DNA of 6,329 nt from a virus (taxonomy: Duplodnaviria > Heunggongvirae > Uroviricota > Caudoviricetes), in IMG/VR virus record IMGVR_UViG_2547132488_000017, positions 1 through 6,329 of that record, one strand, 5' to 3'. The first letter of the stretch is position 1. Each line of letters opens with the position of its first letter. The notes under the pieces are model-generated. The model searched no databases and was not told where the DNA came from. It worked only from the letters and a program-made list of their open reading frames with translations. Below are positions 789-2,183 of this stretch, in pieces. The translations under genes and the position numbers were made by a program.

Positions 789-986
789 ATGCTAAAACAG
801 CAGGATATGACCGAAACCGCCAGAGTGGTGTTTAATGAGTTAAGCGTCACCGAACCGGCGACCGTCGGGGAGATTGCACAGAATACTTACCTTTCACGCG
901 AACGCTGCCAGTTAATACTGACCCAGCTTGTTATGGCGGGTCTGGCAGATTATCAGTTCGGTTGTTACAGACGCCTTCCTCAGTGA
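789..986 (+). CDS. Small hypothetical protein, possible winged-helix DNA-binding regulator (65 aa)
   Basis: In-frame ATG at 789 preceded by AAGGG (776-780) with 8-nt spacer. The ATG at 666 that opens the listed ORF abuts the terminator T-run and has no SD. Pattern TVGEIAQNTYLSRERCQLILTQLVMAGLADY looks like a recognition helix plus wing of small wHTH proteins. Product assignment is tentative. Confidence 0.45.
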   Translation: MLKQQDMTETARVVFNELSVTEPATVGEIAQNTYLSRERCQLILTQLVMAGLADYQFGCYRRLPQ

Positions 987-1041
987 AGGCTTTTTAATTT
1001 GTGGTAATGGGCGGCTGGTGGGTGTTAGCGGCACCTGCCAG

Positions 1042-1090
1042 CCATCTGCTCATGCGTTGGGGTCACAAGCAAACCTCAGGCCCATCTGCT
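1042..1090. repeat. Two copies of a 9-bp direct repeat CCATCTGCT (1042-1050 and 1082-1090) in the intergenic region upstream of the methyltransferase
   Basis: Exact 9-mer repeated 40 bp apart (about 4 helical turns), each followed by a TGCG-containing stretch. Candidate operator; no functional evidence. Confidence 0.3.
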
Positions 1091-1136
1091 TTGCGCAAAA
1101 GCGGTATGAGCCTATCAGAGAAGCGCTTATTGATCT

Positions 1137-2183
1137 ATGGTTAATACTGTAAAAATATCCAGTTGTGAGTTAATCAACGCTGATTGCCTGGAATTTATCC
1201 AGACCTTACCGGAAAACTCTGTCGATCTGATAGTCACAGACCCGCCATACTTTAAAGTGAAGCCCGAGGGCTGGGATAACCAGTGGAAGGGCGACGATGA
1301 TTACCTGAAATGGCTGGACCAGTGTCTGGCGCAATTCTGGCGGGTACTGAAGCCTGCCGGAAGTCTTTACCTGTTCTGTGATCATCGCCTGGCATCTGAT
1401 ATCGAAATCATGATGCGTGAACGCTTTAATGTGCTGAACCACATTATCTGGGCGAAGCCGTCCGGGCGCTGGAACGGATGCAACAAGGAAAGCCTGCGGA
1501 CGTATTTCCCGGCAACAGAACGCATTCTGTTTGCAGAACATTATCAGGGGCCATACCAGCCCAAAAATGACGGCTATGCGGCAAAGGGGCGTGAACTAAA
1601 ACAGCACGTCATGGCCCCGCTGATTTCTTACTTTCGTGATGCGCGTGAATCACTGGGAATAACGTCAAAACAGATAGCGGAAGCCACCGGAAAGAAAAAC
1701 ATGGCTTCGCACTGGTTTGGTACCAGTCAGTGGCAGTTGCCGAATGAAGGCGATTATCTGAAATTACAGGCGTTGTTTGCGCGTGTTGCAGCAGAAAAAC
1801 ATCAGCGCGGTGAACTGGAAAAGCCACACCACCAGCTGGTCAGCACATACAGTGAACTGAACCGGCAATATGCCAGTCTGCTGGAGGAGTACAAATCCCT
1901 GCGGCGTTATTTTTCCGTATCGGCTGCCGTTCCGTATACGGATGTCTGGACGCACAAGCCTGTGCAGTATTACCCCGGCAAACATCCCTGTGAGAAACCG
2001 GCGGATATGTTGCGTCAGATAATTACCGCCAGCAGCCATCCGGGAGATTTGGTCGCTGATTTTTTTATGGGGTCGGGGTCAACAATAAAAGCAGCATTAT
2101 CGCTGGGAAGGCGTGCAATAGGTGTGGAACTGGAAGAAGAGAGATTTAACCAGACTGTAATTGAAATAAAAAATAATCGTTAA
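1137..2183 (+). CDS. DNA methyltransferase, beta-class N6-adenine/N4-cytosine family (DPPY motif favours N6-adenine); orphan, no adjacent restriction gene
   Basis: 348-aa ORF. Catalytic motif IV VTDPPYF near the N-terminus and AdoMet-binding motif I DFFMGSGST near the C-terminus (order IV then I = beta class). TAA stop at 2181-2183. Start codon ATG 1137 has only a weak SD, so the exact start is uncertain. Confidence 0.88.
   Translation: MVNTVKISSCELINADCLEFIQTLPENSVDLIVTDPPYFKVKPEGWDNQWKGDDDYLKWLDQCLAQFWRVLKPAGSLYLFCDHRLASDIEIMMRERFNVLNHIIWAKPSGRWNGCNKESLRTYFPATERILFAEHYQGPYQPKNDGYAAKGRELKQHVMAPLISYFRDARESLGITSKQIAEATGKKNMASHWFGTSQWQLPNEGDYLKLQALFARVAAEKHQRGELEKPHHQLVSTYSELNRQYASLLEEYKSLRRYFSVSAAVPYTDVWTHKPVQYYPGKHPCEKPADMLRQIITASSHPGDLVADFFMGSGSTIKAALSLGRRAIGVELEEERFNQTVIEIKNNR

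Follow-up and report, generated by a model that had tools for sequence, protein, structure and literature searches.

The best known relatives of the enzyme treated here are encoded by prophages of Escherichia coli. M.EcoGII, from a prophage of E. coli O104:H4 strain C227-11, methylates adenine whatever the surrounding sequence (Murray et al. 2018, PMC5778455), and from the same work it is known to methylate RNA as well, to be deleterious when expressed constitutively, to be silent in lysogens and to have a very similar counterpart in phage 1720a-02 (PMC5778455). Homologues of M.EcoGII in Shiga toxin-producing E. coli (STEC) O111 are likewise silent (PMC6602927), and Anc291 and SUPREM are reconstructed ancestors, of which Anc291 is experimentally non-specific (PMC11551740). 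Here we analyze a stretch of 6,329 nucleotides from a virus of the Caudoviricetes (positions 1 to 6,329 of IMG/VR record IMGVR_UViG_2547132488_000017, below called the window), in which the gene of such a methylase follows a small open reading frame (ORF) for a protein of 65 aa and a spacer of 150 nt.

The two genes are accompanied by a promoter-like element, a hairpin over the stop codon of the small gene and a structured RNA leader of the methylase (Table 1). On balance we favour the view that these parts make up a self-contained late-operon cassette of Enterobacterales lambdoid prophages, which would restrict a toxic methylase to Q-antiterminated transcription and in which the winged-helix protein encoded by the small ORF would be the dedicated regulator.

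Table 1 Features of the window and the basis on which they were assigned (SD, Shine-Dalgarno sequence; dN/dS, ratio of nonsynonymous to synonymous substitution rates).
Feature	Position	Strand	Basis and remarks
Q-like antiterminator gene (DUF1133 type)	3..557	+	Pfam DUF1133, E 2.5e-103; weak Phage_antitermQ match; PHROG 753 (anti-termination protein Q-like)
Intrinsic terminator, tR'-like	643..667	+	ACCCGC-TTTAT-GCGGGT, then T-run; read from the sequence; directly 5' of the cassette
Promoter-like element	728..764	+	TTGCTG (728-733), 17-nt variable spacer, TATTGG (751-756), then TATGTCAC; conserved upstream of the small ORF
Small winged-helix protein gene, 65 aa	789..986	+	ATG start, TGA stop (984-986); PHROG 331 (function unknown); dN/dS; AlphaFold2; synteny
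Hairpin P0	973..1000	+	GCCTTC-CTCAGT-GAAGGC (973-990), then TTTTTAATTT; called by terminator scan; small ORF stop codon (984-986) in or at the loop
Structured RNA leader of the methylase, 133 nt	1006..1139	+	Ends at the SD-less start GAUCUAUG; RNAalifold, covariation, covariance model
P1, outer helix UGGGC/GCCCA	1008-1012 with 1080-1084		Encloses P2 and P3
P2, 12-bp hairpin	1013-1024 with 1032-1043
P3 hairpin	1045-1050 and 1053-1054 with 1064-1065 and 1068-1073
P4 hairpin	1088-1092 with 1098-1102
P5 hairpin	1106-1111 with 1125-1130
First CCATCTGCT copy	1042..1050	+	3' end of P2, junction A, 5' strand of P3
Second CCATCTGCT copy	1082..1090	+	3' strand of P1, linker, 5' strand of P4
M.EcoGI/M.EcoGII-family beta-class N6-adenine DNA methyltransferase, 348 aa	1137..2183	+	PF01555, E 5e-45, matched end to end
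tRNA-Thr(TGT) and tRNA-Gly(TCC)	2352-2505		Downstream of the methylase

Results

The methylase and its family

The methylase carries the catalytic DPPY at residues 35-38 (nt 1239-1250) and, in the C-terminal part, FMGSG at residues 310-314 (nt 2064-2078) as the FxGxG motif for binding of S-adenosylmethionine (SAM), and this motif order is that of the beta class, as a first-pass annotation made from the letters alone had concluded. It is at least 85% identical to M.EcoGII over 347 aa (with 2 gaps, both from the machine-read reference sequence) and at least 88% identical to the reconstructed ancestor Anc291; these values are lower bounds because both references come from a machine-read table in the supplement of the SUPREM paper (PMC11551740) that has a few reading errors. 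Identity to the enzyme of phage 1720a-02 is 86%. With M.EcoGII/M.EcoGI, Anc291 and SUPREM the window enzyme shares a collinear full-length alignment, the same beta-class motif order, the prophage location and the close relative in 1720a-02, and the central target-recognition region (residues ~160-237) is the same as in M.EcoGII and Anc291, free of gaps. Judged by its sequence the window methylase is a member of the already known M.EcoGI/M.EcoGII family and not a new enzyme. The first-pass annotation had missed this relationship and had expected a target motif; from the family membership, methylome work would instead be expected to show non-specific N6-methyladenine (m6A).

There is a single position at which the window methylase leaves a near-invariant column. 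Codon 82 (1380-1382) is GAT and encodes Asp, where 142 of 143 homologues have Gly within the conserved SLYLFC-G-HR, and this G82D substitution is unique to the window copy.

The small ORF and methylase module is widespread. By megablast it is found at 80-93% nucleotide identity in phiP27, where it lies directly 5' of ileZ-argO-stx2e, and in many phages carrying the Shiga toxin 2 genes (Stx2 phages); it is also present in 1720a-02, and it is matched in 2170 of 5426 complete E. coli genomes (~40%), in up to 8 places per genome.

A small winged-helix gene is linked to the methylase

An EcoGII-type methylase adjoins the small ORF in 23 of 24 loci chosen as one genome per species. The spacer between the two genes is 142-154 nt long in 22 of the 23 species loci, the remaining one (L023, with a truncated small ORF) having 285 nt; when the window is set beside 25 loci the same length range holds for 24 of the 26 sequences, and the other two have a disrupted or truncated small ORF. 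Among 80 viral contigs found via the methylase, 77 had enough upstream sequence, and the small ORF lies upstream of the methylase in every one of these (77/77). The linkage extends to distant members of the small-protein family, since P0192, P0177, P0162 (two places) and P0185 all lie between a Q gene and a PF01555 methylase (5/5 testable loci; P0184 stands outside this count because its contig is too short to show neighbours).

The slot occupied by the cassette is that between Q/tR' and the lysis genes, with lysis genes or morons downstream. The upstream Q proteins belong to four Pfam families, and Pfam matches downstream of the methylase in 10 diverse loci are mostly to lysozyme/endolysin genes, plus a kinase-phosphatase pair in Providencia, while one ORF (in L012) has no match. 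The first-pass annotation had called the methylase an orphan, a view that a restriction gene beside it in related elements would have contradicted. No restriction gene is found beside the methylase in the window, where the flanks hold the Q gene, tRNAs and lysis genes, nor among the flanking genes examined in related loci, distant members included, and the enzyme is a prophage-borne orphan.

The small ORF is under purifying selection, with dN/dS of 0.00-0.15 across 14 pairs, and its product in the window is 100% identical to the phiP27 and 1720a-02 copies, the DNA differing at synonymous sites. It is clear from these results that the 65-aa ORF is a real gene dedicated to the methylase cassette. 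Across genera the small protein diverges faster (53-86% identity) than the methylase (74-86%). The small gene has a usable Shine-Dalgarno sequence (SD; AAGGG, 8-9 nt before the ATG); the methylase has none.

[quoted passage not shown] The best Foldseek matches were the wHTH domains of OhrR, SarZ and IclR with query TM-scores of 0.77-0.87, and there were also matches to MarR, to the N-terminal domains of O-methyltransferases and, at rank 40, to the mRNA-binding domain of SelB; all were generic winged helices, with a best E-value of 1e-3. Pfam matches stayed below the cut-offs (TrmB 18.0 bits against 25.6; MarR_2 14.7 bits against 27), no match was found in NCBIfam or in a PDB sequence search, and NCBI names some members of the family "TrmB family". 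A resemblance to the methylation-responsive regulators PapI/FaeA, which the first-pass annotation had put forward as speculation, was dropped, as there was no signal for it in Pfam at E<=0.1, in the PDB sequence search or in the top 50 Foldseek PDB matches.

The family is a narrow one. Clustering at 90% identity gives 334 clusters, with every named match from Enterobacterales, and a search of 1.84 billion proteins gives only 87 at 50% identity. Its members are 63-68 aa long and have no dimerisation or ligand domain. The best-conserved segments are the recognition helix, R-C-Q-L-I-L-T-Q-L-x-M-A-G-L, and the N-terminus, M-L-K-Q-x-D-M-T. A zinc or disulfide site formed by the two cysteines of the small protein was considered and rejected, since only Cys40 is nearly invariant and the second, C-terminal cysteine is lost in the Xenorhabdus clade.

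Two further loci were observed in this connection. L020 (3980-4302) has kept the leader (97.5 bits) and a small ORF whose N-terminus is altered, but it has lost the methylase, and an unrelated 62-aa ORF comes next. L003 is a 2.5-kb contig from a "Bacillus" metagenome bin that carries an Escherichia-type cassette with 98% protein identity and is most likely a binning contaminant.

The spacer holds a conserved structured RNA leader

The spacer between the two genes is 83-98% identical between genera in which the number of synonymous substitutions per site (dS) of the flanking genes exceeds 1 and synonymous sites are saturated (dS 1-2). RNAalifold predicts for it a three-way junction followed by two hairpins (P1 to P5 in Table 1); the last of these, P5, ends five nt before the methylase AUG, which lies outside the hairpin. 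In a MAFFT alignment that had not been fitted to the structure 92.6% of the cells pair, compared with 30-44% for slid partners, both sides have changed in 9 pairs, and the covariation score lies above those of all 500 shuffles. After pooling of 48 distinct sequences such two-sided changes are counted in 17 pairs and 130 cells; the covariation score is then 0.223, that of the shuffles 0.127, and none of these (0/500) reached the observed value. As an example, position 1047 covaries with 1071 across genera as C-G, U-A or A-U. Exchanges of G-C to G-U and of A-U to G-U are frequent, and therefore the structure lies on the RNA of the plus strand. The loops and junctions are highly conserved, with invariant nucleotides.

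A covariance model of the leader matches 100 of 100 sources and its match abuts the methylase ATG wherever the methylase is present; of 80 loci in the Providencia-like clade, 64 have the leader. In L189 and L192, which were retrieved independently, P2 and P3 are preserved by other base pairs. Rfam 15 gave no match for the leader (987-1136) at E<=1 with permissive filters on both strands. Collectively, covariation supports a conserved leader fold of P1 to P5, which by these comparisons matches no described RNA family.

The leader is not retained everywhere. In the Xenorhabdus clade it is shorter (~95 nt) and only a P2-like hairpin is kept, and in L188 (1404-1635) and in L190 and L191 (3195-3269) the spacer instead holds a strong intrinsic terminator and an ordinary SD before the methylase. 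This replacement of the leader by a terminator suggests that blocking of read-through may be the common purpose of the spacer.

Two other roles for the spacer were tried and rejected. A hidden 47-aa ORF (1001-1144) is broken in every frame by single-nucleotide indels among the homologues, which excludes a coding role, and the palindrome of P4 (TGCTTTAGCGCTAAAGCA in many genera) does not qualify as an operator for the wHTH protein, being absent in lineages that keep the recognition helix.

A separate observation concerns a GATC (Dam) site at 1132-1135, which a single nucleotide separates from the start codon of the methylase (TGATCTATG). All 26 sequences of alignment A3 have it unchanged, with only a T/C difference behind the site, and the Xenorhabdus clade, L188 and L190-L192 have not kept it.

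Stop-codon hairpin and promoter-like element

Hairpin P0 at the end of the small gene looks like a terminator and might act as one. About 20 of 26 loci have a comparable hairpin over the stop codon, with compensatory changes in the stems, e.g. GCCUCC/GGAGGC and CUGCC/GGCAG.

Upstream of the small gene, the element at 728-764 is seen in 30 diverse loci as two invariant blocks, CTTGCTG and CAGAGTTAYNTGTRTG, separated by a variable spacer of fixed length (11 nt). The layout is that of a -35 sequence, 17 nt and a -10-like hexamer, and the core AGAG(T/G)TA is found in about 175 of 176 loci. The element was not called by a consensus promoter scan because the -10-like hexamer has no final T. Readings as a sigma-54, sigma-E or extended -10 promoter were judged by eye and rejected, as spacing or sequence did not fit, and no conserved RNA structure was predicted upstream of the small ORF. 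We regard the element as a candidate promoter of the cassette and also as a candidate binding site for the winged-helix protein. Among the features that were compared, the promoter-like element, the N-terminus of the small protein and its recognition helix were kept in every lineage examined.

The surrounding late region

The window covers the start of the late region of a lambdoid prophage, in the order Q-like gene, tR'-like hairpin, 65-aa ORF, spacer, methylase, tRNAs and lysis genes. The Q-like gene is possibly cut at the 5' end of the window and is context for the cassette, not a part of it. The tR'-like terminator was not listed by the consensus terminator scan of the window; a G+C hairpin with a T-run is nevertheless found at the tR' position in most of 24 aligned loci, despite differing upstream Q families. 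The placement of the methylase downstream of a Q-like gene and its terminator, made by the first-pass annotation, agrees with these features and with a Q-dependent late operon. 3' of the tRNA pair, Pfam identifies two holins and then an M15 endolysin.

Several observations were made on the neighbouring DNA. In the slot where the window has tRNA-Thr and tRNA-Gly, phiP27 carries ileZ and argO and then stx2e, so that the payload after the methylase cassette has been swapped between phages. At the same site in Providencia huashanensis (L021, 5523-7021) a gene for a eukaryote-type Ser/Thr protein kinase and then a PP2C phosphatase gene stand directly 3' of the methylase. A weak Rfam match to isrK (E 0.2) is found at 591-664 between the Q gene and the tR'-like terminator, which is the position of the short PR' transcript that acts as a small RNA (sRNA), StxS, in Stx phages. 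From the tRNAs to the holin there is a non-coding stretch of 540 nt (2520-3060) with three or four terminator-like hairpins (2604-2624, 2867-2886, 2915-2932 and 3026-3041) and a weak STnc100 match at 2701-2896 (E 0.003, under the gathering score); in prophages of enterohaemorrhagic E. coli (EHEC), convergent anti-sRNAs such as AgvB and AsxR have been reported from this moron site (PMC4104026). 3' of the lysis genes a cysteine-rich ORF of 68 aa (4375-4581; C-x-n-C, then CYWCCRDC) has no Pfam match. Finally, weak matches to GcvB (E 0.015) and OmrA-B (E 0.5) at 5599-5735, 3' of an 81-aa ORF, end at a strong terminator (~5707-5735), and this stretch could be a prophage sRNA.

Discussion

A proposed late-operon cassette for a toxic methylase

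In the reading that we favour, the payload of the cassette is an M.EcoGII-family enzyme; enzymes of this family modify adenine in any context, shield progeny phage DNA from many restriction systems and do harm to the host if their expression is mistimed. We infer from the position after tR' and from the published silence in lysogens that the methylase is made only from Q-antiterminated transcripts: polymerase that has not been modified by Q would stop at tR' or after the small gene, and only read-through by Q-modified RNA polymerase would yield the enzyme. Three conserved devices stand before the methylase, namely the small gene with its promoter-like element, the stop-codon hairpin or terminator, and the SD-less structured leader, owing to which leaked transcripts would be poorly translated. 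The winged-helix protein would regulate the cassette, most probably by binding DNA at the promoter-like element. This target is preferred because the element and the recognition helix (R-C-Q-L-I-L-T-Q-L) are kept together in all lineages examined.

Several points weigh against this reading. The co-conservation of recognition helix and promoter-like element is only correlative, and with a -10 sequence (TAYNTG) that has no critical final T the element may be weak, activator-dependent or no promoter. Most genera have a poor U-tract (UUUCUG) behind P0, and P0 may therefore not terminate transcription in them. Counting of residues puts the net charge of the small protein at about -1, and the protein has none of the dimerisation helices of MarR or TrmB, which is unusual for a DNA-binding repressor. 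In L023 a premature stop cuts the small ORF short beside an intact methylase, so that retention of a prophage copy does not strictly depend on the small gene. As to the window itself, G82D may mean that this copy of the methylase is inactive, or the base may be a sequencing error.

A bolder version, which we put forward tentatively and do not expect to be the case, is that the element of 133 nt represents a cis-regulatory RNA of a new class, dedicated to non-specific adenine methyltransferases, and forms, with the winged-helix protein, a ribonucleoprotein or feedback switch. The protein might then bind the three-way junction, or the RNA might sense SAM, S-adenosylhomocysteine (SAH) or its own m6A. 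If true, the switch would set the dose and timing of genome-wide DNA modification and would correspond, in lambdoid phages and with unrelated parts, to com-mom of Mu.

Alternative explanations

By their weight we rank the alternatives as RNA binding of the Com type, an inhibitor or partner of the enzyme, a ligand-sensing leader, a repeat operator and, last, descent alone.

The small protein might be a translational activator that binds or remodels the leader RNA and lets ribosomes start at the SD-less AUG, as Com does on Mu mom mRNA, and we consider this doubtful but worth keeping in mind. The logic would be the same as that of com-mom and of com with Hin1523/Hia5, adenine methylases of Mu-like prophages that have no sequence specificity, in which a small ORF likewise precedes a host-damaging, adenine-modifying late enzyme (PMC3299994; PMC6483171), and it would account for a start codon with no SD behind a leader that is highly conserved down to its loops and junctions. 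Some winged helices are able to bind RNA, and the fold matches include the mRNA-binding domain of SelB; the fold is, however, a wHTH with one nearly invariant cysteine and not a zinc finger. Furthermore, lineages in which the most conserved helix of the small protein persists have a shortened leader or something else in its place, and P5 leaves the AUG free.

It is unlikely, in our judgement, that the small protein works by binding the methylase, either as an antitoxin-like inhibitor of enzyme that leaks through in lysogens or as a subunit for targeting or specificity. The gene order, with a small protein of DNA-binding fold before a toxic enzyme, does resemble that of type II toxin-antitoxin pairs, the SD in front of only the small gene would give an excess of its product, and the strict linkage of the two genes and the mildly acidic character of the protein by residue count would suit a partner. 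Yet cloned M.EcoGII is fully active and non-specific on its own (PMC5778455), hence no subunit is needed for activity, and the faster divergence of the small protein comes with no sign of co-variation with the methylase.

Improbable as well is a leader that senses a ligand or a state (SAM/SAH, temperature or its own adenine methylation), with the small ORF as a separate moron gene. A three-way junction with invariant junction and loop nucleotides directly before a SAM-dependent enzyme invites such an explanation, the more so as M.EcoGII methylates RNA (PMC5778455), and with no Rfam match the RNA would be a new class. Against it, the leader is confined to one narrow lineage in which some relatives have plain terminators instead, and the strict linkage of small ORF and methylase argues against an unrelated moron.

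The first-pass annotation had proposed a controller-plus-operator arrangement in which the small wHTH protein, like a controller (C) protein, would bind two CCATCTGCT repeats in the spacer DNA and set the transcription of the methylase. The part concerning a real winged-helix gene linked to the methylase stands, while the repeat operator appears very unlikely. The 9-mer does occur exactly twice in the window, 40 nt apart from start to start and between the two genes, and two copies of this word were found in 0 of 200 shuffles; a fairer test is weaker, as 2.7% of shuffled spacers have some 9-mer direct repeat, and the window has seven close direct-repeat pairs of 9-mer or longer. The pair is exact only in the window, phiP27 and L003 (3 of 26 sequences). 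In 1720a-02 and E. albertii the second copy has lost one nucleotide, other genera have CCACCGCTT or CCACTGCTT in its place, and no more than 3-5 of the 9 positions agree between the two sites in 21 further loci at species level. Pairing partners elsewhere in the leader account for both copies, and because they lie in different helices and junctions of the RNA fold each is constrained for a different reason. No sigma-70-like promoter was called in the spacer. In addition, these sequences are missing from the Xenorhabdus-type, L188 and L190/L191 cassettes, in which the recognition helix is kept, and since such lineages have lost or replaced most of the spacer, it cannot be the conserved operator of the small protein. 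On the evidence of the alignments and the predicted fold, the CCATCTGCT words are parts of the leader helices and not an operator.

That the spacer merely reflects recent common descent or horizontal spread and that its helices are fortuitous we regard as hardly credible: the effective sequence number of the covariance model is only 1.2, many helix positions never vary and the window sequence alone folds with z = -2.2, but the spacer is 83-89% identical across saturated flanking synonymous sites, 86-93% of cells pair against 30-50% in slid controls with both-sided changes in 17 pairs, and the newly retrieved L189 and L192 preserve helices by different pairs.

Implications

M.EcoGII is in wide use for marking DNA and RNA with m6A irrespective of sequence, and the cassette offers a concrete, testable regulatory model and a candidate RNA motif for how phages silence such a methylase in lysogens and deliver it late. 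The winged-helix gene, the stop-codon hairpin and the leader go with the methylase across Enterobacterales, including upstream of stx2e in phiP27. In many Stx phages stx and the cassette share one late transcript, so toxin expression may also be influenced by the terminator and leader of the cassette. Problems met in expressing cloned native fragments may be due to the leader and the small ORF, and the two could be put to use in keeping toxic enzymes tightly switched off.

Comparison with known systems

Insertion of morons downstream of PR' in lambdoid prophages was reportedly described by Juhala in 2000. The cassette occupies this same slot, from Q-PR'-tR' to the lysis genes, which in related lambdoid and Stx prophages holds stx, tRNAs and small RNAs (PMC4104026). 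Compared with single morons it is far more widespread and is internally structured as promoter-like element, gene, hairpin, leader and gene. A description of the small ORF or of the leader was not found in the literature searched, whose coverage is incomplete, and the M.EcoGII paper reports no additional elements (PMC5778455).

With the domains of MarR, TrmB and IclR the small protein shares the topology of three helices and a beta-hairpin and the recognition-helix pattern S-x-x-x-x-x-L-x-x-L-x-x-x-G-L. It differs from them in that Pfam scores are below the cut-offs, no Foldseek match has E<=0.001 and the protein has its own narrow family, PHROG 331.

The C proteins of restriction-modification systems resemble the cassette in that a small helix-turn-helix (HTH) protein with a presumed timing role is encoded before a potentially toxic enzyme. 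C proteins have an Xre-type HTH (~80-100 aa), bind inverted C-boxes upstream of their own gene and control a restriction gene, whereas the cassette has a wHTH protein with no HTH_3/Xre match and no restriction gene, and the repeats proposed for it are downstream and unconserved.

Closest in design are com-mom of phage Mu and the Mu-like pairs of com with Hin1523, Nme1821 or Hia5 (PMC3299994; PMC6483171), where an ORF of ~60 aa precedes a late, host-damaging, broad-range adenine-modifying enzyme. In Mu the enzyme guards phage DNA from restriction and an RNA structure precedes its start, as in the cassette. The parts are different: Com is a four-cysteine zinc finger and the small protein of the cassette a winged helix; Hia5-type enzymes are Dam-like and the methylase of the cassette is of the beta class; com and its enzyme gene are adjacent or overlapping and the genes of the cassette lie ~150 nt apart; and mom has a short hairpin and a translation-inhibition structure where the cassette has a multi-helix leader of 133 nt. 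What seems to be new in the present locus is therefore the architecture around a known enzyme, made up of a winged-helix gene dedicated to the cassette, a hairpin at the stop codon of that gene and a leader with covarying pairs.

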